DNA of 64,000 nt. It comes from a virus (Duplodnaviria; Caudoviricetes). The stretch spans positions 1-64,000 of IMG/VR virus record IMGVR_UViG_2522572099_000001. One strand, 5' to 3'. Both the position numbers and the translations under genes were made by a program. The notes beneath the pieces were generated by a model. It saw only the letters and a program-made list of their open reading frames with translations, ran no database searches and was not told the origin of the DNA. Shown here piece by piece: positions 21,152 to 45,715 of this stretch; within the stretch, counting starts at the first letter, position 1; each line of letters starts with the position of its first letter.

Positions 21152-21462
21152 TCCGCGCCGGGCTAATCCTCACGCTCATCGCTTTGCCGGCGGTGGCCCA
21201 TGACGCTCCGCCGAGCGCCGCCATGCCGAAAGGTTGGACATTTGCGTCGCGCTGCTGCGGCAACGGCGATTGCTACCCCGTCCAGACCGACGCCATTCGC
21301 GAAAGGCCGGACGGCTATCATATCCTGTCGACCGGCGAGGTGATCCCCTACCAGTCGACGAAGGTCCTGCCGTCGCCCGACGGCCTGCCATATCGCTGCT
21401 CGACGGCCGGCAGCGTGCAGGGCGTCACCTATTGCATCTATGTGCCGAAAGGCGGCGTGTGA
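21148..21462 (+). CDS. Small secreted Cys-rich protein
   Basis: Signal peptide ending AVA-H; CC..DC..C..C. Confidence 0.7.
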   Translation: MIRAGLILTLIALPAVAHDAPPSAAMPKGWTFASRCCGNGDCYPVQTDAIRERPDGYHILSTGEVIPYQSTKVLPSPDGLPYRCSTAGSVQGVTYCIYVPKGGV

Positions 21463-22592
21463 TGTCGCTTGTCCGCTACGACGCCGCCTGCCTCGCCCTG
21501 GCCAATGCCAAGACCATCGACGAGGTGAAGGACTTTGCCGACAAAGCCGAGGCGATGCGCGCCTATGCCAGGCAAGCGAAGAACCACCAGATGGAGGTCG
21601 ACGCGGCCGAAATCCGCATCCGCGCCGAGCGGCGGCTGGGCGAACTGATCGTCGCGCAGAAGACCACGATCGGCCTCAATCCTGGCGGCCGGCCAAAAAC
21701 CAGTGCCTCGGCGGAACGGCTTCCAGAACAGCCAACCCTTTCCGATGTCGGCGTCGATCGCAAGATGTCGTCGCGGGCGCAAAAAATGGCTGCTGTTCCC
21801 GAAGGCGAGTTCGAAGCCATGGTCGGCGACTGGCGCCAGCGCATCGAGATCGAGAACGAGCGCGTCACCGTCAACCTGCTCAAGGCCGGCGAAAAGCGGC
21901 TTTCGCGCGACCAGCGTGAGGCCGAGCTTGCAGCCAGGCAGCTGGCGCTGCCGACCGCGAAATTCGGCCTGATCGTGGCCGATCCCGAGTGGCAGTTCGA
22001 GCCCTACAGCCGCGTCACCGGCATGGATCGCGCCGCCGACAACCATTATCCGACGTCGAACCTCGACACGATCATGGCGCGCGACGTCGCCTCGATCGCG
22101 GCCGACGACTGCATCCTGTTCCTGTGGGCCACGGCGCCGATGCTGATTGAGGCGATCTGCGTGCTCGACGCGTGGGGCTTCGCCGTGCTCGAGCGTGACG
22201 CCGAGGTCGGCAACCTGCGGCCGGTCAAGGCCGAGGCGCGCTATGTGACGTCGTTCGCCTGGCTCAAGGAGCGGATAATCACCGGCTACTGGAACCGGGG
22301 CAAGCACGAGATCCTGCTCGTGGCGACGCGCGGCCATCCCGTGGCGCCGGACATGCACGATCCGAAACTGCCGTCCTGGTTCGAGGGCGAGGCAATCCAG
22401 GCGCCGAGCGGCGAGCATTCGGCCAAGCCGGAACTGTTCCTGGAGTGGATCGACAAGCTTTGGCCCAACACGCCCAAGATCGAGCTTAACCGGCGCGGCC
22501 CGGCCCGGCCAAATTGGGAGGCCTGGGGGAATCAGGCCGATCTGCCGCCGCACGATCCGGTGACGGGTGAACTCATCGACGGTGTCTCGTGA
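21462..22592 (+). CDS. MT-A70 family adenine methyltransferase with N-terminal extension
   Basis: IVADPEW, HYPT, LFLWAT, HE.LLVATRG, HSAKP and IELN.R motifs. Confidence 0.9.
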   Translation: MSLVRYDAACLALANAKTIDEVKDFADKAEAMRAYARQAKNHQMEVDAAEIRIRAERRLGELIVAQKTTIGLNPGGRPKTSASAERLPEQPTLSDVGVDRKMSSRAQKMAAVPEGEFEAMVGDWRQRIEIENERVTVNLLKAGEKRLSRDQREAELAARQLALPTAKFGLIVADPEWQFEPYSRVTGMDRAADNHYPTSNLDTIMARDVASIAADDCILFLWATAPMLIEAICVLDAWGFAVLERDAEVGNLRPVKAEARYVTSFAWLKERIITGYWNRGKHEILLVATRGHPVAPDMHDPKLPSWFEGEAIQAPSGEHSAKPELFLEWIDKLWPNTPKIELNRRGPARPNWEAWGNQADLPPHDPVTGELIDGVS

Positions 22593-23356: not shown

Positions 23357-24115
23357 TCAATGCCGGCTGATCAGCGAAGCGATCTTCGTCAGCCCTTTCG
23401 GTGTGACGCGCACCTGCTCGATCATCTTCTCGGAGCCGTCCGCGCGCGGAACCGCCGTCACCTTGTGCTCGAGGTAGCCGGCGATCACCTTGGACTCGTA
23501 GCCGAGATAGTTCGATGAGCCGCGCCGCTTGAAGATCCAGCCATTGCGCAGCAGTCTGGCGAAGAACTCCTTCGGCTGCATCTGGAGGGCTTTGGCAGCA
23601 TCGGTGATGCAGAGCGAGCCGTCGGCCGCGGCAATGCGCTGAAGCGCGTCATGCGACGGGCGGAGTTGGGCGACTTCCTTCTGGAGCTCCAACGCCTTGT
23701 CGGCATACGAGGCCAGTAAGCCGCGAAGCGTGGCCGGGTCGTTTAGGTCCACGGGCGGAGCGGCTTTCTTGAGAGCCGCATCCATTTGATCGAAGGCATC
23801 CATATAGGCCAGCTTGAAGTCGAGCGCCTTCGGACCGGTGAACCCCATCCCCAAAAGCGTGAAGCCTTGCCGCGTCATATCGAAGTAGCGGTGCTGCTGC
23901 TGGCGGGTCTCCGGAAGGGTGTAGACCCCCTGCGCAAAATGGAGCAGGGCCAGGCTGGGCTTCTGTTCGATGAGATTGTCGATCGCGCGGATCACGTCGC
24001 GGTGGTTCTTTTCGAAGTAAGCCGCCACGTCGCGGCTCGTCGCGAAGACCTCGCCATTGCGCGCGAACACGACCGGCGTCGCTTCATTGACGTAACTGAC
24101 CGCCGCTTGTGTCAT
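23357..24115 (-). CDS. Rha-N / KilAC(ANT)-C phage antirepressor
   Basis: TSRDVAAYFEKNH..GFTLLGMGFTG..K..Y; ITDAAKAL..VTPKGL. Confidence 0.9.
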   Translation of the reverse strand: MTQAAVSYVNEATPVVFARNGEVFATSRDVAAYFEKNHRDVIRAIDNLIEQKPSLALLHFAQGVYTLPETRQQQHRYFDMTRQGFTLLGMGFTGPKALDFKLAYMDAFDQMDAALKKAAPPVDLNDPATLRGLLASYADKALELQKEVAQLRPSHDALQRIAAADGSLCITDAAKALQMQPKEFFARLLRNGWIFKRRGSSNYLGYESKVIAGYLEHKVTAVPRADGSEKMIEQVRVTPKGLTKIASLISRH

Positions 24116-24772: not shown

Positions 24773-25642
24773 CTACATCAGCATCGTGCGGGCATGTGCC
24801 TGGCGCAGTTGGGATTCCATCGTGCGGATGGTCCGCGATGCTGCCGCCAGCGTGTCGGCCCATTTGTCGGCCCGGGTTGGGTCGACGGATTTCAGCGCCA
24901 CGCACTCCCCGTCCTTGAAACCGGCCGCGATCGCCGTGACGATCCGCTCGACGGTGCGCTCCATCCTGCTCATGGCGGCGATGTCGTCCTTCGACGGTTC
25001 GGGTCGATCGTCGAACATGCCACCCTGCTCGATGCGGTCGCGCACGGCTTGCGCCGCCGCCTTGACGCCCGACCAGTCTTTCAGCTTGCCGCTGGTGAAC
25101 AGCTTCACAATTGCCATCTGCTCATGCTTCGGCAGGTCGACCAGATAGTTCGCGTGCCCGAGTGGGAACTGGTTGGCGTCGACCAGGCTCTGGATGGTCT
25201 CGTCCAGATTGAGCAGCGCCGTGCGGTCGGCGATCCGCCGCGGCTGAACGCCGAGATCCTTCGCCAGTTTCTCCACGGTCCAGCCCATGTCGAGCATCGC
25301 CTTGAACGCGCGCGCCTCCTCGACAGCACGCAGATCGGCGCGCTGCAGGTTCTCAATGATCGCTTTCAGCGCCATCTCGTCGTCGCTCATGTCCTCGACC
25401 TCGCAGAGGATGGTCGGCGTCTTGCCGAGCGCGCCGTCGTCCGCAAGCAGGCAATGGGCCCGCCAGCGGCGCTCGCCGCCGACGATGATGAAATGCTCGC
25501 CGGCTGGCCTGACCGTGATGGCCTGCATGAGGCCGCGCTCGCGGATGGAATCGGCCAACTCGCGCAGCGCCTTGACCTCAAAGAGTTTCCTTGGCTGCCC
25601 CGGATTCGGGATGACCTGGGTGAGGGGGATGCGCTTTTTCAT
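24773..25642 (-). CDS. ParB/RepB/Spo0J family protein (no ParA seen)
   Basis: PNPGQPRK, GERRWRA and ENLQRADL motifs; HTH. Confidence 0.92.
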   Translation of the reverse strand: MKKRIPLTQVIPNPGQPRKLFEVKALRELADSIRERGLMQAITVRPAGEHFIIVGGERRWRAHCLLADDGALGKTPTILCEVEDMSDDEMALKAIIENLQRADLRAVEEARAFKAMLDMGWTVEKLAKDLGVQPRRIADRTALLNLDETIQSLVDANQFPLGHANYLVDLPKHEQMAIVKLFTSGKLKDWSGVKAAAQAVRDRIEQGGMFDDRPEPSKDDIAAMSRMERTVERIVTAIAAGFKDGECVALKSVDPTRADKWADTLAAASRTIRTMESQLRQAHARTMLM

Positions 25643-27626: not shown

Positions 27627-28223
27627 TCAGAGAACCGGCTGGAACCGGCCCTTGAGGACTTCGGCGGAGATCGAGCGCTTGTCGTCGCCGCGCTGGATCT
27701 GCGCCTGGTCCGGATTCTCCGGATCGAAGCCGATCACCTTCCAGAGATTGCCGTCGCCGTCTGGCGCCTCGGCGCCGATATAGAGGGTGACGTCCAAGGG
27801 CTCCGGCTTGGCCTGCTTGCGATATTGCGCAGGCAGCTTCGGATGCTGCCACGCACAACCCTGGTCTTCCAGGCCATATTCAAACACCTCGATGCCGAGC
27901 TGTTCCTTGAGCCACACCGAGATGTAGGCGCGGTGGCAATATTTGTTGTCCGTCGGCGCCTCGTAGCATAGCAGCGCCGCGTCCTTGCCCGCCGAGAGGT
28001 CTTCGATCTTGGCCACCACCTTGCGGGCATCGAGGCGGGCCAGTCCGTCGAAATAGAGCTGCTTGTAATCGCGGTCGCTGGCGGTGGAAAACCAAGGTCC
28101 TGGTGCGAGTTCCGCCATCTTACGGAACCCTGCCGGATATCCGCGAGGCGTGCCCCTGGAAACCCCGATTTTTTGGATCGTGGTGGGTAGGGGATGGAAC
28201 CAGCTCGAAGTGAAAATGCGCAT
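27627..28223 (-). CDS. DUF488 family protein
   Basis: IFTSSWF..GVSRGTP..LAPG..LLCYE..CHR..WL motifs. Confidence 0.8.
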   Translation of the reverse strand: MRIFTSSWFHPLPTTIQKIGVSRGTPRGYPAGFRKMAELAPGPWFSTASDRDYKQLYFDGLARLDARKVVAKIEDLSAGKDAALLCYEAPTDNKYCHRAYISVWLKEQLGIEVFEYGLEDQGCAWQHPKLPAQYRKQAKPEPLDVTLYIGAEAPDGDGNLWKVIGFDPENPDQAQIQRGDDKRSISAEVLKGRFQPVL

Positions 28224-35179: not shown

Positions 35180-36496
35180 GTGTTTCAGGGCGTTGTGCCG
35201 AAAGAGTGCATCGCGCAGATCCTTCGCGTTTCCGAGGTCGACACCTGGGGCAGGGTCTATAACTGCTGCTCGGGAACGTTCCGCTTCGAGCAGATCACGC
35301 TGGCAACGTTCCCCGGTGTCGAGATGCACTCGAACGACGTCAGCCTGTACTCCTCGGCGATCGCCGGCTATGTGCTCGGCAATCCGCTCGACTATGAGTT
35401 TCACGGCGCGCTCGACTTCGTCAACGAGCATGATTTTCGCGAGCCGGACCAGCGCCTGGCGGCACTCGCCGTCGCCTTCAATCTCGGCCGCTTCGTCGGC
35501 GGCAAGGCCAACGCCTACAAGACCAGCCATCGCACCCACCTGGTTGCGAACTTCGCCGGCTATGTCGAGCGCACCCTGGAGAAGGTCCGCAAGCTTCCCG
35601 GGATGATCCCGATCAAGAGCTACGCGCCGCGCGACTGGCTGCTCCACATGGAGGAGGCGATCGAGCGCAAGGCCGCCGTGTTCAGCTACCCTCCGTTTTT
35701 TTTGAACGGCTATGAAAAGATGTTCGCCTTCCTGGCCGAGAACATCAAATGGGACGCGCCGCAGTATCAGATTTTCGATCCGAAGAACCTGCGCGGCATC
35801 ATCGAGCGCGTGCGCCAGGCCGGCGTGCCCTATTGCATCCTCTCCGACCAGGTCTACGAGGATCTCAAACCGGAGCTGGAGTTCATCTCCGGGCGCGGCA
35901 AGCCGCACTTCTGCTACGTCTCGACGGGCAAGTCGTCCTATCTGCAGCTGGTGCCGCGCTCAGCGCCGTTCCGCTACAAGCCTGTCGACCTTGCCAAGAT
36001 CAAGCCGGATTCGGTGGTGACCATCGGCAAGGCCGACGCTGCCCAGATGACGTTTCTCAAGGACGTCTACCTGAAAAAAGGCATCGTCCACACGCCGGGC
36101 ATGGTGAACTACCTGGTCCGCGTCGACGACATGCTGGTCGGCGGGCTGATCTACAACATGGACAAGTTCACCCGGCAATCGATCTACCTGCTTTCGGACT
36201 TCGCCATCTCGCGCGAGGGCAGACTGTCGAAGCTCGTCACCAGGCTCGCCTGCAATGGGGAACTGTTGCGCGACCTTGGGAAGCGCTTCATCGACCGTTT
36301 CGACAAGGTGCAAACCTCAGCGTTTTCGGACCATCCCGTTTCGATGAAATATCGCGGCATCTTCGAGCAAACCAAGCGCGAAGAGATCGGCGCGCCCGAA
36401 GGCAAGTTCAGGCTGCATTACGTCGGCGCCCGCATCGATGAGACGCCGCAACAAGCGTTCGAGTGGTGGTATGGCAAGCACTTCAACCGCAGTTGA
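35180..36496 (+). CDS. Putative DNA-modification enzyme: degenerate Dam-like N-domain plus Mom/GNAT-like C-domain
   Basis: CSGTF..HSNDVS..SYPPF (in place of DPPY); C-terminal VDDMLVGGLIY..LLSDF..RLSKL..TSAFS..SMKYRG. Confidence 0.6.
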   Translation: MFQGVVPKECIAQILRVSEVDTWGRVYNCCSGTFRFEQITLATFPGVEMHSNDVSLYSSAIAGYVLGNPLDYEFHGALDFVNEHDFREPDQRLAALAVAFNLGRFVGGKANAYKTSHRTHLVANFAGYVERTLEKVRKLPGMIPIKSYAPRDWLLHMEEAIERKAAVFSYPPFFLNGYEKMFAFLAENIKWDAPQYQIFDPKNLRGIIERVRQAGVPYCILSDQVYEDLKPELEFISGRGKPHFCYVSTGKSSYLQLVPRSAPFRYKPVDLAKIKPDSVVTIGKADAAQMTFLKDVYLKKGIVHTPGMVNYLVRVDDMLVGGLIYNMDKFTRQSIYLLSDFAISREGRLSKLVTRLACNGELLRDLGKRFIDRFDKVQTSAFSDHPVSMKYRGIFEQTKREEIGAPEGKFRLHYVGARIDETPQQAFEWWYGKHFNRS

Positions 36497-37214
36497 CTGG
36501 AAAGCCCTCGACATCGAGGCGCGCCAGGTCGATCCGAAGACGCTCAAGCGCCGCGAGAAAAACGCGCACTACATGGCGCCTGCGATGTTCAAGCGCCTGG
36601 TCGAGAACGTCAAGATCGACGGGCGCCTGACGACAACCGTTCTCGCCTGCCAGGACAAGGACGGTTCGCTCGAAATTCTGTCCGGTCATCACCGCACCGC
36701 GGCCGCGATCGAGGCAGGCCTTGCCCTGGTCGACGCGCTCGTCATCACCACGCCGCTGACCGAAAAGCGCAAGGTGGCGATCCAGCTCAGCCACAACTCG
36801 ATCAACGGCGAGGACGACCAGTCGCTGCTGGCCCAGCTTTACGCCTCGCTCGATATCGACGCCAAAAAATTCTCCGGTCTCGACGACAGCGTGCTCTCCG
36901 GCGACAAGGGACCTGGGGCCGCAGCACTCGGCGGGGCGAACATCAAATACGACGAGCTGCTATTCGCCTTCCTGCCGGAGGAGCGCGTGCAGTTCGAGGT
37001 CGAAATGGAGGCGCTGGCCAAAAGGGCCAAGCGCTTCCGCATCCATGCAGCGCCGCAATCCACGTTCGACGGCTTTTTCGATGCCATCGTGCGCACCAAG
37101 CAGCAGCTCAACATCGTCAATTCTGGCATAGCGCTTTCGGTGATGGCGCGCCTGGCCGGCGAACGTCTCGATCAGCTCGAGGCCGAGCAAGACGACAAGC
37201 CCGATGCGGCATGA
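36471..37214 (+). CDS. ParB-N/sulfiredoxin-like domain protein
   Basis: KNAHYM..ILSGHHRTAAA..LSHNSING motifs. Confidence 0.85.
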   Translation: MASTSTAVDWKALDIEARQVDPKTLKRREKNAHYMAPAMFKRLVENVKIDGRLTTTVLACQDKDGSLEILSGHHRTAAAIEAGLALVDALVITTPLTEKRKVAIQLSHNSINGEDDQSLLAQLYASLDIDAKKFSGLDDSVLSGDKGPGAAALGGANIKYDELLFAFLPEERVQFEVEMEALAKRAKRFRIHAAPQSTFDGFFDAIVRTKQQLNIVNSGIALSVMARLAGERLDQLEAEQDDKPDAA

Positions 37215-37250: not shown

Positions 37251-37556
37251 ATGCAACGTGATTTCCGGCCGGTGGCCGAAGCACGTCCAATCACCTATGG
37301 CACGATCGCCGATCTCAAAATGGCAAACGGTAGGGTCTACCGGGCAATCTTTGGGTTCAAGGCGAACGTTTGTGCCTGGTGGCCAATGGGCGGATATCGC
37401 AAGCGCGCAATCGGCACGGCGGAGCCTGTCGCGTTGTCGGTCATAAAAACCGGCGATGTAGACCATTTGGATTGGCAAGAGGCAGCTCTGCGCCAGCATG
37501 CAGATCCGCGCAACCTCTTACACGTTTGCCACTCGCGCCCGCGAGTCGTGTCGTGA
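37251..37556 (+). CDS. Hypothetical protein
   Basis: ORF coupled to terS. Confidence 0.5.
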   Translation: MQRDFRPVAEARPITYGTIADLKMANGRVYRAIFGFKANVCAWWPMGGYRKRAIGTAEPVALSVIKTGDVDHLDWQEAALRQHADPRNLLHVCHSRPRVVS

Positions 37557-38215
37557 TCCGGACCAAGTCGATCGCAACCGCCGCGAAGCCGAAGGCAAAG
37601 GGCAAGCCTGCTGGCGGTTCAAAGGCCAAGGCGCCGGCAGTTGCAGAGGCTGAGGCCGAGGCGAAAAAAAAGCCCGTCGGCGCCAACAAGAAATCGAAGC
37701 TCAAGGCGAAGCGTCCTATCAAGCAGAAGCCGGCTCCAAAGCCGGACGCTGCACCGAAACCTGAAGCGCGCCAAAAGCCAGGGCCGGCGCCAAAGCTAGG
37801 ATTGAAGGATGTAGAGCGCGTCATCGCGATGCTCCGCAACTGCGGCGGCATAAAATCGGTCGCGGCTGAGAAGCTCAACGTCAGTCGGCCGACGCTTCAC
37901 TCGTTCCTGAATGACCATCCGGAAGTCCAGGAAGCCGCCGCCGAGATCGATGAGGAGATGCTTGACGTCGCCGAAGGTCGCGTCGTCATGGCGATCCGCG
38001 CCGGCGAGATGCAGACCGTGCGCTGGTATCTGGAGCTGAAAGGCAAGGAACGCGGCTATGTCCGCCGCGTCGAGCAAACCGGCAAGGGCGGTGGTCCGGT
38101 CGAGACCCGGCAGGCGCCCGACCTCTCCGGATATTCCGAGGCCGAGTTGGCGCAACTCCTGACGATCGAGGAGGCTCGGCAAAAACGGGAAGCGGGCGCC
38201 TCCCAGGCGAAGTAA
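37553..38215 (+). CDS. terS: Terminase small subunit-like protein
   Basis: HTH (AAEKLNVSRPTL), WYLELKGKERGY, TGKGGGPV; abuts terL. Confidence 0.75.
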   Translation: MIRTKSIATAAKPKAKGKPAGGSKAKAPAVAEAEAEAKKKPVGANKKSKLKAKRPIKQKPAPKPDAAPKPEARQKPGPAPKLGLKDVERVIAMLRNCGGIKSVAAEKLNVSRPTLHSFLNDHPEVQEAAAEIDEEMLDVAEGRVVMAIRAGEMQTVRWYLELKGKERGYVRRVEQTGKGGGPVETRQAPDLSGYSEAELAQLLTIEEARQKREAGASQAK

Positions 38216-39709
38216 ATGGCGCGCCCCGATGGCGGCGCCAGGCCGACGCTGGACGAATTGCGCATCGAGCTCGACCGCCGCGCCTGTGAGCGCTCGCTGT
38301 CCGAGTTCGTCAAGCGCGGCTGGCATGTGCTGGAGCCCGGCCAGCCTTACAGCCACGGCTGGCACATCGATGCCATTTCCGAGCACCTCGAGGCGGTCAG
38401 CGCCGGGGAAATCCTGCGGCTGCTGATGAACGTGCCGCCCGGCACGATGAAGTCGCTGCTTTCCGGCGTGTTCTTCCCGGCATGGGAGTGGGGCCCGCAG
38501 GACATGCCGCACCTGCGGTTCATGGGCACGTCCTACAAGGACTCGCTGGCGATCCGCGACAACGTCAAGACCCGCCGGCTGATCCAGTCGCAATGGTATC
38601 TGGATCGCTGGGGCGATCGCTTCGCCATGATCGGCGACCAAAATACGAAAACCAAGTTCGAGAACGACAAGACCGGCTTTCGCGAGGCGATGGCGTTCAA
38701 CTCGATGACCGGCTCGCGCGGCGACCGCGTGCTGCTCGACGATCCGCTCTCGGTGCAGATGGCGAAGTCCGACACCGAGCGCCAGACCGCCAACGACACG
38801 TTCCACGAATCGCTGCCGACCCGCCTCAACAACCCGGACACGTCGGCCATCATCGTCATCATGCAGCGCCTGCATGAAACGGACGTTTCGGGCACGATCC
38901 TTGCCGGCGACTACGGCTACGAGCACCTCATGCTGCCGATGGAGTTCGAGCCCGAGCGCAAATGCTACACATCGATCGGCTTCGAGGATCCGCGCAAGGT
39001 CGATGGCGAACTGCTGTTCGAGGCCAGGTTTTCCCGCACCGTCGTCGATCGCGACAAGAAGATCATGGGCAGCTACGCCTCGGCCGGGCAATTCCAGCAA
39101 CGCCCGGCGCCGCGCGAAGGCGGCATGTTCCATCGCGAGTGGTTCGACAGCATCCGCGCTGTTCCGGCGGGAACCCGCTTCTGCCGCGGCTGGGACATGG
39201 CGGCCAGCGACGAGAAGGACTCGGCCTACAGCGCTGGCGTCAAGATCGGCGCGATGCCGGATGGCCGTTTCGTCATAGCGCACGCCACGCGCGGCCAGTT
39301 GCTTGCCGGTGGCGTCGAGAAGTTGATCAAGACCACGGCGGCGGCCGACAAGGCGCAGCACGGCGGCAATGTCATGATCTCGCTGCCGCAGGATCCCGGC
39401 CAGGCGGGAAAAGCCCAGGTCGGCTACTACGTCAAGCAGCTGGCCGGCTACAACGTGCGCAAGTCGCCGGAGTCGGGCGACAAGATCACCCGGGCCGAGC
39501 CCCTTTCGGCGCAGGCTGAGGCCGGCAACGTCGTCATCCTGCGTACAGGAGACCAGGCCAAGGATGCCTGGATAGAACCGTATCTCGACGAAATCTGCAT
39601 GTTCCCCAACAGCAAATTCAAGGATCAGACCGATGCGTCGAGTCGCGCCTTCAATGAGCTGGCGACGCGCAAGAAAGAAACCAAGACCAGCTTCGCGGAC
39701 ATGCACTGA
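38216..39709 (+). CDS. terL: Terminase large subunit
   Basis: NVPPGTMKS Walker A, LLDDP, QQRP, WDMA and DQTDA motifs. Confidence 0.95.
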   Translation: MARPDGGARPTLDELRIELDRRACERSLSEFVKRGWHVLEPGQPYSHGWHIDAISEHLEAVSAGEILRLLMNVPPGTMKSLLSGVFFPAWEWGPQDMPHLRFMGTSYKDSLAIRDNVKTRRLIQSQWYLDRWGDRFAMIGDQNTKTKFENDKTGFREAMAFNSMTGSRGDRVLLDDPLSVQMAKSDTERQTANDTFHESLPTRLNNPDTSAIIVIMQRLHETDVSGTILAGDYGYEHLMLPMEFEPERKCYTSIGFEDPRKVDGELLFEARFSRTVVDRDKKIMGSYASAGQFQQRPAPREGGMFHREWFDSIRAVPAGTRFCRGWDMAASDEKDSAYSAGVKIGAMPDGRFVIAHATRGQLLAGGVEKLIKTTAAADKAQHGGNVMISLPQDPGQAGKAQVGYYVKQLAGYNVRKSPESGDKITRAEPLSAQAEAGNVVILRTGDQAKDAWIEPYLDEICMFPNSKFKDQTDASSRAFNELATRKKETKTSFADMH

Positions 39710-41142
39710 TGGCTAACAACGTCGACAACCACCATCCCGACTACGATCTTCGTGTCGAGGAATGGGCGCTGATGCGCGACGCGGCGCGTGGCGAAACGGC
39801 CATCAAGGACGCCGAGACGACTTATCTCCCGATGCCGTCGGGCTTCACCAAGCGGCCCGATGGCGGCGTTGCCCTGTTCGGCGCCTACAAGCTGAGGGCG
39901 CAATTCCCGGAGATCGTCGGGCCTACGATCGGCGGCATGGTCGGCGTCATCCATCGCGTCGAAATCCAGATCGACATGCCGCAGGCCATGGACGGCCTCT
40001 GGGAGAAGGCCACGATCGACGGCATGCCGCTCGAGGCGCTGGCCGCCAAGATCACCGGCGAGGTCCTGACCACCGGGCGCTTCGCCCTGCTTGCCAGCGC
40101 GCCAAGCGCCGGCGGCGAGCCGTATATCTCGACCTATTGCACCGAGGCGCTGATCAACTGGTCGGAAGCCCGCGATTTCTTCGTGCTGGACGAGTCCGGC
40201 CTGGTCCGCGAAGGCTTCGATTGGGTCGAGAGCAAGCGATATCGTGTGCTCGAGCTGGTCGACGGCAAGTATCAGTCCACCGAATATTCCGGCGGTACGC
40301 TTGCGGCCGGCACGCCCGTCAAACCGACAGCCAAGGGCGGCACGCCGCTCGAAGAAATCCCGCTGGTCGTCGTCGGTCCGCGCGACCTGTCGCCTTCACC
40401 TGAGACGCCGCCGCTGATCGGCGTGGCGCGCTCGGCGGTCAACATGTACCAGCTCTCGGCCGACTATCGCTGGCAGCTGTTCATGACCGGCCAGGAAACG
40501 CTGTTCATCATCAACGGCGATGAACCCGAAATCGTCGGCGCCGGCGTCATCGTCTCGCTCAAGGCCGATGGCGAGCAGACCCCGGATGCGAAATATGTCG
40601 GTCCGTCCGGCACCGGCATCGACGCGCACAAGGTGGCGATCACCGATGAGCGCGACGCCGCGGCAGCTGCCGGCGCCAAACTGTTCGATACAGCCTCGCA
40701 GGCGCAGGAATCGGGCGACGCCAGGCGGCTTCGCTTCGCCGCCCAGACCGCAACGCTGGTCACCATCGCCCAGGCTTCGGCAAAGGCGCTGGAACAGGTG
40801 CTGCGCCACATCGCTGTCATGAAGGGGCTCGACCCGACGCAGGTCATCGTCAAGCCGAACCTGTCGTTCATCGATAGCACGCTAACGCCGGCCGAAGTCG
40901 TCCAGGTCATCCAGGGCTGGCATGATGGCGGCTACAGCTACGAGACCATGTACGAGCGGCTGCAGAAGGGCGAGGCGGTCAATGCCGACCGCACCGCCGA
41001 GGAAGAACGCAAGCTCATCGACAAGGAAACGGCGGCGTCCGACGCTACCGATGCGGAGCGCGGCATCCTGCCGGGTCCGCCTAAACCCACTGTTCCGGCT
41101 GTTCCGGCCCTTCCTGTTCCAGTGCAGGCGCCGGCGGCGTGA
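39709..41142 (+). CDS. Portal protein (DUF4055-type)
   Basis: HPDY..YLPMP..Y..RA..PPLIGVA..YQLSAD; follows terL. Confidence 0.9.
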   Translation: MANNVDNHHPDYDLRVEEWALMRDAARGETAIKDAETTYLPMPSGFTKRPDGGVALFGAYKLRAQFPEIVGPTIGGMVGVIHRVEIQIDMPQAMDGLWEKATIDGMPLEALAAKITGEVLTTGRFALLASAPSAGGEPYISTYCTEALINWSEARDFFVLDESGLVREGFDWVESKRYRVLELVDGKYQSTEYSGGTLAAGTPVKPTAKGGTPLEEIPLVVVGPRDLSPSPETPPLIGVARSAVNMYQLSADYRWQLFMTGQETLFIINGDEPEIVGAGVIVSLKADGEQTPDAKYVGPSGTGIDAHKVAITDERDAAAAAGAKLFDTASQAQESGDARRLRFAAQTATLVTIAQASAKALEQVLRHIAVMKGLDPTQVIVKPNLSFIDSTLTPAEVVQVIQGWHDGGYSYETMYERLQKGEAVNADRTAEEERKLIDKETAASDATDAERGILPGPPKPTVPAVPALPVPVQAPAA

Positions 41143-41345
41143 GAGCCTCGCTTCGTATCGATCGCGAGGTGCTGGAGCGCAACATGTGGCCCGACAAGAG
41201 CTGCCGCGTCCGCATCGTCGGCGCGTCCTGGGATCCGGCCACCTCCAGCGTCGTGCTGGATCTCGAAGGCAAGAGCCTGCCCGACGGTGGCGAGGTCAAG
41301 CTGTTGACGCGCCGCTGGACAGAGACGGAGTTCAAGCCCCTGTGA
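41139..41345 (+). CDS. Small hypothetical protein
   Basis: GTGA coupling at both ends. Confidence 0.6.
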   Translation: MRASLRIDREVLERNMWPDKSCRVRIVGASWDPATSSVVLDLEGKSLPDGGEVKLLTRRWTETEFKPL

Positions 41346-42394
41346 CGCTGTTTCGTGAGTGTTTCCGGCATCTCGGATCGATCGAGCGCCGACGCATCCC
41401 GCCGATTCCGCGCGAGGCGATGCGGCTGCACCGCCTGGAACGGCCCGAGCCGTGGCCAAGCGAGGTCGTCGAGGCCATGCGCGCCGGCCCGCCGGACAAC
41501 TGGTATCCGGACTATGCCGCGTTCTATCGGCGGCTGAGCGCGTTCACCGGCGTTCCCGAGGAACGCATGGTCGTCGGCGCCGGGATTGAGGATTTCATTC
41601 GCACGCTCGTCATGTTGTGCTGCGAGCCGGCCGACGGCTTCGCCTTCACCTGGCCCACATGCGCCATGTTCGACATTTATGCCCAGGTGTTCCTGGCAAG
41701 ACCGGTTCGCATCGTCACGGACCCGAAACGACTTCTCTCGGTGCATGACGTCACCGACAAGATCGACAGCGGCGTCAAACTGCTGATCCTGCCCAACCCA
41801 GGCCAGCCGGTCGAGACCTATTTCTGCCTGGCGGAACTGCGCCACATCGCACAGCGCTGCGCCAGCGTCGGCGCGGTGTTCGCCATCGATGAGGCTTATC
41901 TCGGCTTCGGCGCCGAAACCGCACTGCCGCTGGTCGACGACTTCGAAAACGTCGTCATCCTGCGCACCTTCTCGAAGGCTTTTGGCGGTGCAGCACTTCG
42001 CGTCGGCTATGCCATCGGGCAGCCTTCGGTCATCCGCCCTCTCCACGCCATCCGCGAATCCGGTGAGATCGCCGGGCCTTCGATCAACGGCGCCGTGGCG
42101 CTGATGGATAAGTGGTCGAGGTGGGTCGAGCCCGGCATCGCCATGGTCTGCGAAGGCCGCGACTGGCTGCGCGACACGCTTCTGCGCGACGGCTACGACG
42201 CGCGTGGCTGGTTCGCCAATCACGTCATGGTCCGTCTGGACGAGCCGGCAGCGCCGTTCGCGGAGCGCATGCGCAAGCGCGGCGCCCATGTGAAGGCCGG
42301 GTTCCCGGCACCGCTTGACGGAAGCCTGCTGATCACGGGCGGCTCGGTCACGCTGATGCAGCGGTTTTATCGAGCATTCCAGGAGGCGTTGTGA
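41342..42394 (+). CDS. PLP-dependent HisC/CobD-like aminotransferase or decarboxylase
   Basis: YPD, NP, IDEAY and LRTFSKAFGGAALRVGY motifs. Confidence 0.9.
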   Translation: MTLFRECFRHLGSIERRRIPPIPREAMRLHRLERPEPWPSEVVEAMRAGPPDNWYPDYAAFYRRLSAFTGVPEERMVVGAGIEDFIRTLVMLCCEPADGFAFTWPTCAMFDIYAQVFLARPVRIVTDPKRLLSVHDVTDKIDSGVKLLILPNPGQPVETYFCLAELRHIAQRCASVGAVFAIDEAYLGFGAETALPLVDDFENVVILRTFSKAFGGAALRVGYAIGQPSVIRPLHAIRESGEIAGPSINGAVALMDKWSRWVEPGIAMVCEGRDWLRDTLLRDGYDARGWFANHVMVRLDEPAAPFAERMRKRGAHVKAGFPAPLDGSLLITGGSVTLMQRFYRAFQEAL

Positions 42395-45543: not shown

Positions 45544-45612
45544 GCGGATGCTCCGTGAGAGATGCCTGTTCCACAGGCGTTGAGCCAGGCTTGACACCTG
45601 GCATCCGCTCCA
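45544..45612 (+). tRNA. Non-canonical tRNA-Gly(TCC), 69 nt, with encoded CCA
   Basis: Acceptor GCGGATG/CATCCGC-T-CCA; anticodon arm TGCCT-GTTCCAC-AGGCG; T-arm CCAGG-CTTGACA-CCTGG; shrunken D-arm. Confidence 0.75.
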
Positions 45613-45624
45613 GAGAGGCACCAG

Positions 45625-45715
45625 GTCCGCGTGGCGGAAATGGAAGACGCGACGGGTTTAGAACGCCCGTTTGTAGCTTCGGCAAGCAGTGCAGGTTCGA
45701 TTCCTGTCGCGGGCC
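45625..45715 (+). tRNA. Atypical class II tRNA (Leu-TAG-like, 9-nt anticodon loop, no CCA)
   Basis: GTCCGCG/CGCGGGC acceptor; TGGCGGAAATGGAAGACGC D-arm; long variable arm; GCAGGTTCGATTCCTGT T-arm. Confidence 0.7.

Follow-up and report, generated by a model that had tools for sequence, protein, structure and literature searches.

A phage-encoded fusion of Dam-like and GNAT domains with a ParB-fold partner as a candidate tRNA-dependent modifier of DNA bases

Aminoacylation of DNA that depends on tRNA has so far been demonstrated for the Mom protein of phage Mu only (bioRxiv 2023; Nat Commun 2026). Mom (PF25680, PDB 8BV8) is a single-domain dimer that has a helix-turn-helix (HTH)-like insertion for DNA and relies on host tRNA only, and it was reported to carry out a Gly-tRNAGly-dependent modification of N6 of adenine in double-stranded DNA (Silva et al., Nat Commun 2026, PMC13219725), which agrees with the donor named in an earlier sequence-based note on the DNA described here (the original prediction). 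Here, we have analyzed by computational methods a window of 64,000 nucleotides (positions 1 to 64,000 of the IMG/VR virus record IMGVR_UViG_2522572099_000001, a 72-kb record of 63% G+C assigned to Caudoviricetes), in which a prophage gene starting at position 35180 encodes a fusion of a Dam-like domain and a GNAT domain. We lean, with modest assurance, toward the reading that this fusion is a Mom-like, tRNA-dependent DNA base modifier that places tRNA-borne glycine onto the phage's own DNA. It resembles Mom in its GNAT fold and in its genomic link to a glycine tRNA, and a late, post-replicative protection of DNA encoded by the phage itself would be its likely role. It differs from Mom by a Dam-derived domain fused ahead of the GNAT domain, by a ParB-N partner encoded next to it in 80 of 80 loci, by a DUF488 gene that usually lies near, and by a mini tRNA-Gly of its own that is often present; moreover, the family is known from sequences and models, and no sequence relation to Mom could be detected.

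Several other described systems share individual parts with this locus. The DNA-modifying thymine dioxygenase 5mYOX of phages is activated by a ParB-like protein (PNAS 2026, PMC13229309), and, according to that paper, the enzyme gene lies beside that of a ParB-fold protein without an obvious DNA-binding domain, with a terminase as frequent neighbor; enzyme class and chemistry are different, and the dependence on ParB was shown there, whereas here we infer it from gene order and from two fused open reading frames (ORFs). Various nucleoside triphosphates (NTPs) are bound by the ParB fold, and fusions of this fold to phage DNA methylases are frequent (PMC12704722). Among the methylases themselves, Dam, DpnM and T4 Dam share with the fusion protein a fold that includes the target-recognition insert (Z 12.1-14.1), and motifs I, II and IV are collinear with those of E. 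coli Dam, whereas the fusion family has F or Y for the D of DPPY and Cys for the first Gly of FxGxG. DndH, too, carries a DAM domain without catalytic activity, but with fully eroded motifs (PMC10853773). A 2021 survey of jumbo phages covers, in its available part, Mom-nuclease fusions and a GNAT-ABC system, not a Dam-GNAT fusion (PMC7824862). In the literature searched, no description was found of PF22555 or PF22559, of a Dam-GNAT fusion, of a ParB/DUF488 module or of a phage mini tRNA-Gly for DNA modification. Outside translation, amino acids are also taken from charged tRNAs by GNAT-fold transferases of the FemX type, whose acceptor is a peptidoglycan precursor, and staphylococci possess non-proteinogenic tRNA-Gly, dedicated variants that are poor translation substrates and have a full cloverleaf; in the fusion family, by comparison, the proposed acceptor is DNA, and the tRNA is encoded by the phage and lacks the D arm.

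The main features of the locus, in positions of the window, are the following:

35180..36496 (+): Dam-like/GNAT fusion gene, an ORF of 438 aa with a GTG start, matched by Pfam PF22555 and PF22559
35180..35932 (+): Dam-like (alpha-class methylase fold) domain, residues 1-251, from structural matches to the Dam family
35264..35281 (+): motif I-like loop CCSGTF, residues 29-34, with C30 and G32 invariant, collinear with FVGAGS 35-40 of Dam
35330..35344 (+): motif II-like SNDVS from S51, with invariant D53 at the position of D54 (ADIN) of E. coli Dam
35687..35698 (+): degenerate motif IV YPPF, residues 170-173, standing for DPPY 181-184 of E. coli Dam
36011..36481 (+): GNAT-fold domain, residues 278-434, from Pfam PF22559 and an AlphaFold2 (AF2) model
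36438..37214 (+): gene of the ParB-N (ParB-CTPase fold) partner, which lies in the +1 frame and shares 59 nt with the fusion gene
36681-36695 (+): box II-like SGHHR of the partner, from sequence
36783-36797 (+): box III-like QLSHN of the partner, from sequence
45544..45612 (+): D-arm-less tRNA-Gly(UCC)-like RNA of 69 nt with encoded CCA, candidate glycine carrier, from covariance models R1 and R2

By Pfam, residues 2-251 of the fusion protein belong to PF22555 DAM-like-phage1 (E 1.7e-50, 172.3 bits) and residues 278-434 to PF22559 GNAT-phage-like (E 4.4e-45, 153.9 bits), both above the curated cut-off of 27 bits and in this domain order, and PHROGs assigns the protein to phrog_7858 (function unknown). 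Its N-terminus, MFxGxVP, agrees with the family consensus in an alignment of 38 members that are 36-89% identical to the window protein; the motif counts for the N-domain are taken from the same alignment. With 38 aligned sequences, an AF2 model of the whole protein reached a predicted local distance difference test score (pLDDT) of 89.4 and a predicted template modeling score (pTM) of 0.70. A word-indexed search yielded 499 homologues, and both domains were present in 120 of 120 among the matches listed, while the profile of the GNAT domain alone retrieved 1006 clusters at 50% identity, overwhelmingly of the fusion length of 420-470 aa. Relatives are encoded in at least 527 IMG/VR contigs, and the cultured carriers comprise 10 Mycobacterium, 5 Gordonia and 2 Faecalibacterium phage records, at 24-29% identity. 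Against PDB sequences, phmmer with the fusion protein gave only a chance chaperonin match (E 0.23), and hmmsearch with the family profile A1 gave 0 matches. The two Pfam families, together with the two folds described below, bear out the Dam-like/GNAT fusion that the original prediction had placed at 35180.

The N-domain was compared with 48,161 PDB representative chains in an unbiased, aligner-only structure search, in which the top four matches were all Dam-family chains. The chain 7m6b was aligned over 202 residues (Z 14.1), E. coli Dam 2ore over 195 (Z 12.8), T4 Dam over 190 (Z 12.2) and DpnM over 196 (Z 12.1), as against approximately 140 residues and Z values of at most 10.8 for generic Rossmann methylases; Foldseek matched the domain to 4rts/4rtq (E 3e-4). 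Since Dam chains lead the list and are aligned over 190-202 residues compared with about 140 for the generic enzymes, the N-domain is, as modeled, specifically Dam-like, the inserted target-recognition region included. At the profile level no match to solved Dam proteins was obtained (hhalign of the family alignment A1 against E. coli Dam, probability 0.15%), and the motif equivalences given here are drawn solely from the collinear order and the shared fold. Among the N-domain positions without variation are C30, G32, S51, D53, V54, P171, P172 and E179. The motif I-like CCSGTF keeps only the second Gly of FxGxG, the first being replaced by Cys. Motif IV begins with F or Y in 38/38 members and always retains both prolines, and its fourth position is usually F or T, with V in one row, so that the altered DPPY noticed in the original prediction as YPPF, among otherwise methylase-like motifs, has turned out to be a family-wide [FY]PP[FT] pattern. 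Furthermore, seven homologues (P0005, P0009, P0011, P0024, P0040, P0068 and P0089; 38-75% identity) contain an intein of 250-279 aa exactly two residues after motif IV, the site lying after residue 175. Inteins usually sit in functionally critical motifs, and in amino-methylases the first residue of motif IV contacts the target amine. Judging from the invariant PP pair and the placement of the inteins, the motif IV site is still under strong constraint, and methyl transfer of the usual kind by this domain appears unlikely because the first residue of the motif is F or Y throughout. One further homologue (P0262) carries an HNH endonuclease domain within the Dam-like domain.

The C-domain, modeled alone from a 36-sequence alignment (pLDDT 92.1), has a GNAT fold, 500 of 999 chains being matched at Z >=8 by VIA-align, which answers the fold comparison with Mom and GNATs that had been suggested as a check. 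Its matches include 1y9k (Z 11.9), Naa50 (Z 11.1) and Mom 8bv8_B (Z 10.9; rmsd, i.e. root-mean-square deviation, 3.2; 139/202 residues aligned; 13% identity); the Mom chain ranks third of the 999 chains and is the second-best GNAT representative among the 48,161. An earlier impression that this domain resembles Mom-family GNATs is therefore upheld for the fold, and it fails for the sequence, in which no kinship with Mom is seen, and for any special closeness, as Mom is tied with other GNATs. In Pfam, Mom matches PF25680 only and the C-domain PF22559 only. Invariance in the C-domain is seen for S339-D340, where strand 4 ends, for K351, where helix 3 begins, and for M389-K-Y-R-G393 and Y414, and no invariant or near-invariant Gly lies between D340 and K351 (38 or 36 sequences). 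Classical GNATs that use coenzyme A (CoA) have a Q/R-x-x-G-x-G/A pyrophosphate loop between strand 4 and helix 3. The C-domain model has 177 residues compared with 241 in Mom and ends in a single helix, and the HTH-like insertion of Mom (Mom residues ~175-209) is probably absent from it; residues R111, S124 and R151 are essential in Mom (PMC13219725).

The partner gene downstream matches phrog_7405 at 3.6e-59, with ParB-like phrogs at ~1e-10. Its score against Pfam ParB_N (14.1 bits) is below the 26.3-bit cut-off, and 21/35 homologues match that family at E <=0.1. A profile of 35 homologues (A3) detected the M. xanthus ParB 7bnk (E 5.8e-5), with SGnHR aligned to GERR and LSHN to LVEN; G83, R86 (the box II arginine) and N120 are invariant in these homologues, and no HTH_ParB domain was found by Pfam after the N-domain. 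The partner is thus, by sequence comparison, a divergent ParB N-domain protein in which no HTH was found, and the predicted overlap of a ParB-N gene with the fusion gene was correct. Gene context was counted over 80 retained loci of fusion relatives, and tRNA counts by record refer to 50 fusion-encoding virus records. A ParB-N homologue follows the fusion gene on the same strand in 80/80 loci, and enzyme and partner are joined in a single reading frame in L072:6001-8076 (691 aa) and in the protein P0156 (674 aa). In both of these the last GNAT helix is lost at the junction, and real fusions or frameshift errors at the overlap are both possible.

The tRNA-Gly-like RNA at 45544-45612 has no ARAGORN call and no match to Rfam RF00005 at E <=1. 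It has a 7-bp acceptor stem that opens with G1:C72, C2:G71, G3:C70 and G4:C69, a long anticodon helix whose loop contains UCC, and a 5-bp T stem, with U as discriminator and an 11-nt linker in place of the D arm. A BLAST-type search with this RNA of 69 nt recovered no more than three close relatives in 37 records, and covariance models were required, namely R1 from 4 close copies and R2 from 10 sequences after R1 had located more distant ones. The alignment of the ten R2 sequences had been fitted to the model; in it, pairing holds for 97.8% of cells versus at most 43% with slid partners, 13/19 pairs change on both sides, and the observed values were reached by 0/500 shuffles; the first four acceptor pairs are invariant in 10/10 sequences. 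The covariation indicates that this mini-tRNA is a real structured RNA, and the view that tRNA-Gly is absent from the window, which came from ARAGORN and Rfam calling only 45625-45715, was rejected. The determinants of bacterial glycyl-tRNA synthetase (GlyRS) listed in a published study (G1:C72, C2:G71, purine 4:pyrimidine 69, U73, C35 and C36; PMC10464925) are all present in it. With the D arm missing, the mini-tRNA looks unfit for translation. On the same strand, 12 nt farther on, is a tRNA-like gene of class II (45625-45715, +; ARAGORN Ser(AGA), 93 nt; Rfam tRNA 37.9 bits). Its variable arm is long, its discriminator is C, CCA is not encoded, and its anticodon loop is ambiguous between 7 and 9 nt.

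The original prediction had linked the fusion gene to an odd tRNA-Gly, and comparison across phages supports that link. R2 matched (E <=1e-3) in 29/50 fusion-encoding virus records and in 5/7 of those that are at least 90% complete. Within the 80 loci, all 29 of 29 R2 matches are on the strand of the enzyme and upstream of the fusion gene, at a distance of 32-34 nt in five loci (L063-L065, L024 and L081, the last with two tandem tRNA-like copies) and of 0.5-5.5 kb in the rest, whereas the window and its closest relatives have the RNA downstream of the fusion gene, at 9-14 kb and on the same strand. The 30 R2 matches, window included, represent 23 distinct sequences that all have the GCG(G/T)...CGC-U-CCA frame and, in 23/23, an NCC loop (UCC, CCC, ACC or GCC, all of them glycine anticodons); one of the 23 is an ordinary 75-nt tRNA-Gly(UCC). 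Two cultured phages provide cases that are independent of R2. Mycobacterium phage Argie has an annotated tRNA-Gly(UCC) 87 nt before the homologue gp74, which is followed by the ParB-like gp75, and in Gordonia phage Clawz, reading of a 218-nt gap located, 104 nt ahead of gp29/gp30, an unannotated 74-nt tRNA-Gly(UCC)-like element without an ARAGORN call (L257:7823-7896; U73, CCA and an odd T arm). A minus-strand R2 match in Clawz (E 0.017) was weak and taken as spurious. Fusion enzymes that share tRNA-Gly-like genes are only 28-42% identical.

The association was also examined in the reverse direction by scanning the pattern of one mini-tRNA subfamily over the whole IMG/VR viral collection. The pattern matched 18 contigs, and 14 of the copies are real by R2. 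Thirteen of these 14 are in fusion-bearing contigs (12 already in fusion loci and one more with PF22559), and the fourteenth is uninformative, because its contig stops 192 nt away and lacks the downstream side. Pattern matches in L241, L246, L252 and L254 lie inside ORFs, score 15-17 bits with R2, occur without PF22559 and were taken as chance. Another pattern, GCGGATG...ATCCGCTCCA, had at least 120 matches in IMG/VR, mostly canonical tRNA-Gly, chance coding matches and a 74-nt AT-rich class. Among 50 ARAGORN-negative records with this pattern, PF22559 occurs only in the two true mini-tRNA records, so that the pattern is usable as a control (48 other records without PF22559), not as a census.

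Three neighboring genes place the fusion gene and its partner in the phage genome:

27627..28640 (-): DUF488-N3a gene (PF22751, E 9.8e-8)
37370-38215 (+): terminase small-subunit-like (TerS-like) ORF with an HTH_8 match, context outside the enzyme system
38216-39709 (+): TerL, terminase large subunit, with a Terminase_6C match, followed by the portal gene

The fusion gene heads a rightward late operon, of which it is taken as the first gene because those upstream of 35180 run leftward. That ParB-N and modification genes precede the terminase, as had been anticipated, is what the window displays, the TerS-like ORF and TerL following the partner. A terminase of the window type is found downstream in 36/80 loci, and terminases of other Pfam families come directly after the module in 2/2 further loci checked. 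The place of the module before the packaging genes is kept across terminase types, since terminases of different Pfam families also follow it. The DUF488 gene noted earlier at 27627 was confirmed and belongs to a conserved neighborhood, in that a DUF488-N3a-like ORF lies upstream in 53/80 loci, without exception on the opposite strand, and no more than 700 nt away in 38 of the 53; the copy in the window is 6.5 kb upstream of the fusion gene.

From what was observed here, namely the folds of the two domains, the loss of the motif, the linkage of the genes and the structure of the RNA with its conservation, we infer a mechanism for glycine transfer onto DNA. The Dam-derived domain, with its catalytic Asp/Asn lost and its fold, PP turn and adenosine-binding Asp retained, would recognize DNA and flip the target base, which would most likely be modified at adenine N6, because the N-domain is of Dam ancestry, with cytosine N4 as a possible target. 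The GNAT domain would perform the transfer, and by analogy to Mom the product would be N6-glycyl-dA (dA, deoxyadenosine), which would rearrange to N6-carbamoylmethyl-dA. The donor tRNA may be that of the host, to which many phages, including this one, would add a dedicated D-arm-less mini tRNA-Gly; as this RNA keeps the GlyRS determinants and looks ribosome-unfit, DNA modification need not compete with translation. The ParB-N protein would be an obligatory partner, perhaps an NTP-dependent loader or activator, as in the ParB-dependent thymine dioxygenases. As the module opens the late operon and precedes the terminase genes, DNA may be modified just ahead of packaging and would be protected against restriction in the next host. 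An earlier proposal of a self-contained adenine-glycylation system with its own tRNA is supported in its tRNA linkage, and has to be given up in its self-containment, since GlyRS of the host would still be required and a private tRNA is not universal.

A number of observations weigh against transfer of glycine from tRNA to DNA by this enzyme. The Mom match lies within about one Z unit of approximately 50 GNATs, many of them acetyl-CoA-dependent, so that structure alone does not single out Mom as kin of the modeled C-domain, and the Mom paper itself says that the co-substrate is not predictable from structure (PMC13219725). Membership of the C-domain in the Mom family by sequence was rejected, as the domain matches PF22559 and not PF25680 and as hhalign of Mom against the family alignments A1 and A2 gave probabilities of 0.2-0.3%. 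With regard to the RNA, R2 was built from Gly-like members and is biased to Gly-like RNAs, and the mini-tRNA of the window is 9 kb from the fusion gene, not adjacent to it. Charging by GlyRS needs the whole L-shape, according to the study of its determinants, and a D-arm-less RNA might not be charged (PMC10464925). In addition, many of the 80 loci share ancestry, and the counts over them are not independent events and overstate them. In 21/50 fusion-encoding records, many of which are fragments, there is no R2 match at E <=1e-3, and in two near-complete genomes, G019 (100% complete) and G029 (95%), neither ARAGORN nor R2 detects any tRNA. Because these two carry no tRNA, a private tRNA would be an option and not a requirement, and such phages would use the Gly-tRNA of the host as Mu does. 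Faecalibacterium phage FP_Brigit has a tRNA-Lys(CTT) (L259:6660-6736) 162 nt before its fusion gene, and not a tRNA-Gly.

Alternatively, the GNAT domain might N-acylate a DNA base with acyl-CoA (acetyl or another small acyl group), with the tRNA-like genes as unrelated cargo or serving translation. Such chemistry would fit the top structural matches, which are mostly acetyl-CoA-dependent GNATs, and the 21 of 50 records in which a tRNA-Gly-like gene went undetected, two near-complete phages among them, and it has a precedent in TmcA, which acetylates an aromatic amine with acetyl-CoA (PMC13219725). We nevertheless regard it as improbable, considering that the same-strand, upstream linkage of Gly-type tRNAs spans proteobacterial and actinobacterial phages, that the mini-tRNA subfamily occurs almost only in fusion-encoding contigs, that its D-arm-less members seem unfit for translation, and that a conserved glycine-rich loop between strand 4 and helix 3 is missing. 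The adjacency of enzyme and RNA genes fits a substrate as well as a donor, and the GNAT toxin TacT acetylates Gly-tRNAGly (cited in PMC13219725); the tRNA-like RNA or the Gly-tRNA of the host could accordingly be acetylated in the manner of TacT/AtaT, or base-modified via the Dam-like domain, for control of translation or of a host defense. This has a still smaller chance of being correct, as the N-domain is nearest to DNA methylases with a recognition insert and not to RNA methylases (190-202 vs ~140 residues aligned), the obligatory ParB-fold partner and the fixed pre-terminase place point to DNA, and the module is kept in phages without any tRNA gene.

Some tRNA enzymes of methylase fold transfer a 3-amino-3-carboxypropyl group. 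The retained motif I/II-like residues could mean that the N-domain still binds S-adenosylmethionine (SAM) and does something else, which counts against glycine transfer. A SAM-binding N-domain might, for instance, transfer a non-methyl group such as 3-amino-3-carboxypropyl to the base, with the GNAT domain capping the new amine. G32 of the motif I-like loop and D53 of motif II are invariant, and in FP_Brigit a SAM synthetase gene (L259:3891-5069) lies 1.8 kb upstream of the module; as this is a single observation of a SAM synthetase, as Cys replaces the first glycine of the motif I loop, and as the linkage to tRNA-Gly would be left unexplained, we consider such a non-methyl transfer very unlikely. 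Finally, the source database of homologue P0036 names it 'putative antirestriction adenine methyl...', a homologue is annotated as methyltransferase in two Gordonia phage records, and the Dam fold is present, from which the protein might be taken as an active N6-adenine methylase of the ordinary type whose motif IV is unusual and whose GNAT domain is accessory or regulatory. The amine-contacting residue of (D/N/S)PP(Y/F/W) is, however, aromatic in 38/38 members and the fourth position is often Thr, the strict GNAT invariants argue for a catalytic C-domain, and the same phage encodes a separate methylase of the MT-A70 type (21234-22592, +), all of which makes this the least credible of the alternatives.

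Under the preferred reading, that of glycine transfer from tRNA to DNA, a second, unrelated and much commoner enzyme family (1006 clusters at 50% identity and no fewer than 527 viral contigs) would use the chemistry of Mom, with DNA recognition solved by a recycled methylase domain, a ParB-fold partner needed and a minimal tRNA of its own often supplied. We also put forward, more tentatively and at somewhat less than an even chance, a widespread four-part phage system made up of the fusion of a Dam-derived base-flipping domain with a GNAT aminoacyl-transferase, an obligatory ParB-type NTP switch, a divergently transcribed DUF488 protein and a translation-incompetent mini-tRNA that would serve only as amino-acid carrier for DNA modification. 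The identity of this carrier may set the amino acid that decorates the DNA, Gly mostly and perhaps Lys in FP_Brigit. If so, a non-ribosomal tRNA dedicated to the modification of nucleic acids would be known for the first time, and the fusion would be the second family of DNA-aminoacylating enzymes. The mini-tRNA would then be a natural minimal GlyRS substrate and would account for 'orphan' tRNA-like genes that tRNA finders miss, and such enzymes may yield sequence-specific DNA-labeling tools and new anti-restriction marks relevant to phage host range. Cultured phages in which these proposals are testable include the Mycobacterium Argie/Jeon/Taptic group and the Gordonia Clawz group.

Some minor observations were made on the phage and on the RNA searches. 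The same phage encodes a full-length ParB with N-domain and HTH at 24773-25642 (-) and a Rha/ANT antirepressor at 23357-24115 (-), and an ORF with an aminotransferase class I/II domain (E 2.4e-22) comes right after the portal gene at 40922-42394 (+). The 74-nt AT-rich tRNA-Gly-like RNAs (L112, L118, L141, L154 and others) form a separate class, in which the acceptor reads GCGGAUG, the loop has UCC or ACC and the T arm is non-canonical; they have no ARAGORN call and occur without PF22559 in the records checked, many of these being 3-20% fragments of large phages.

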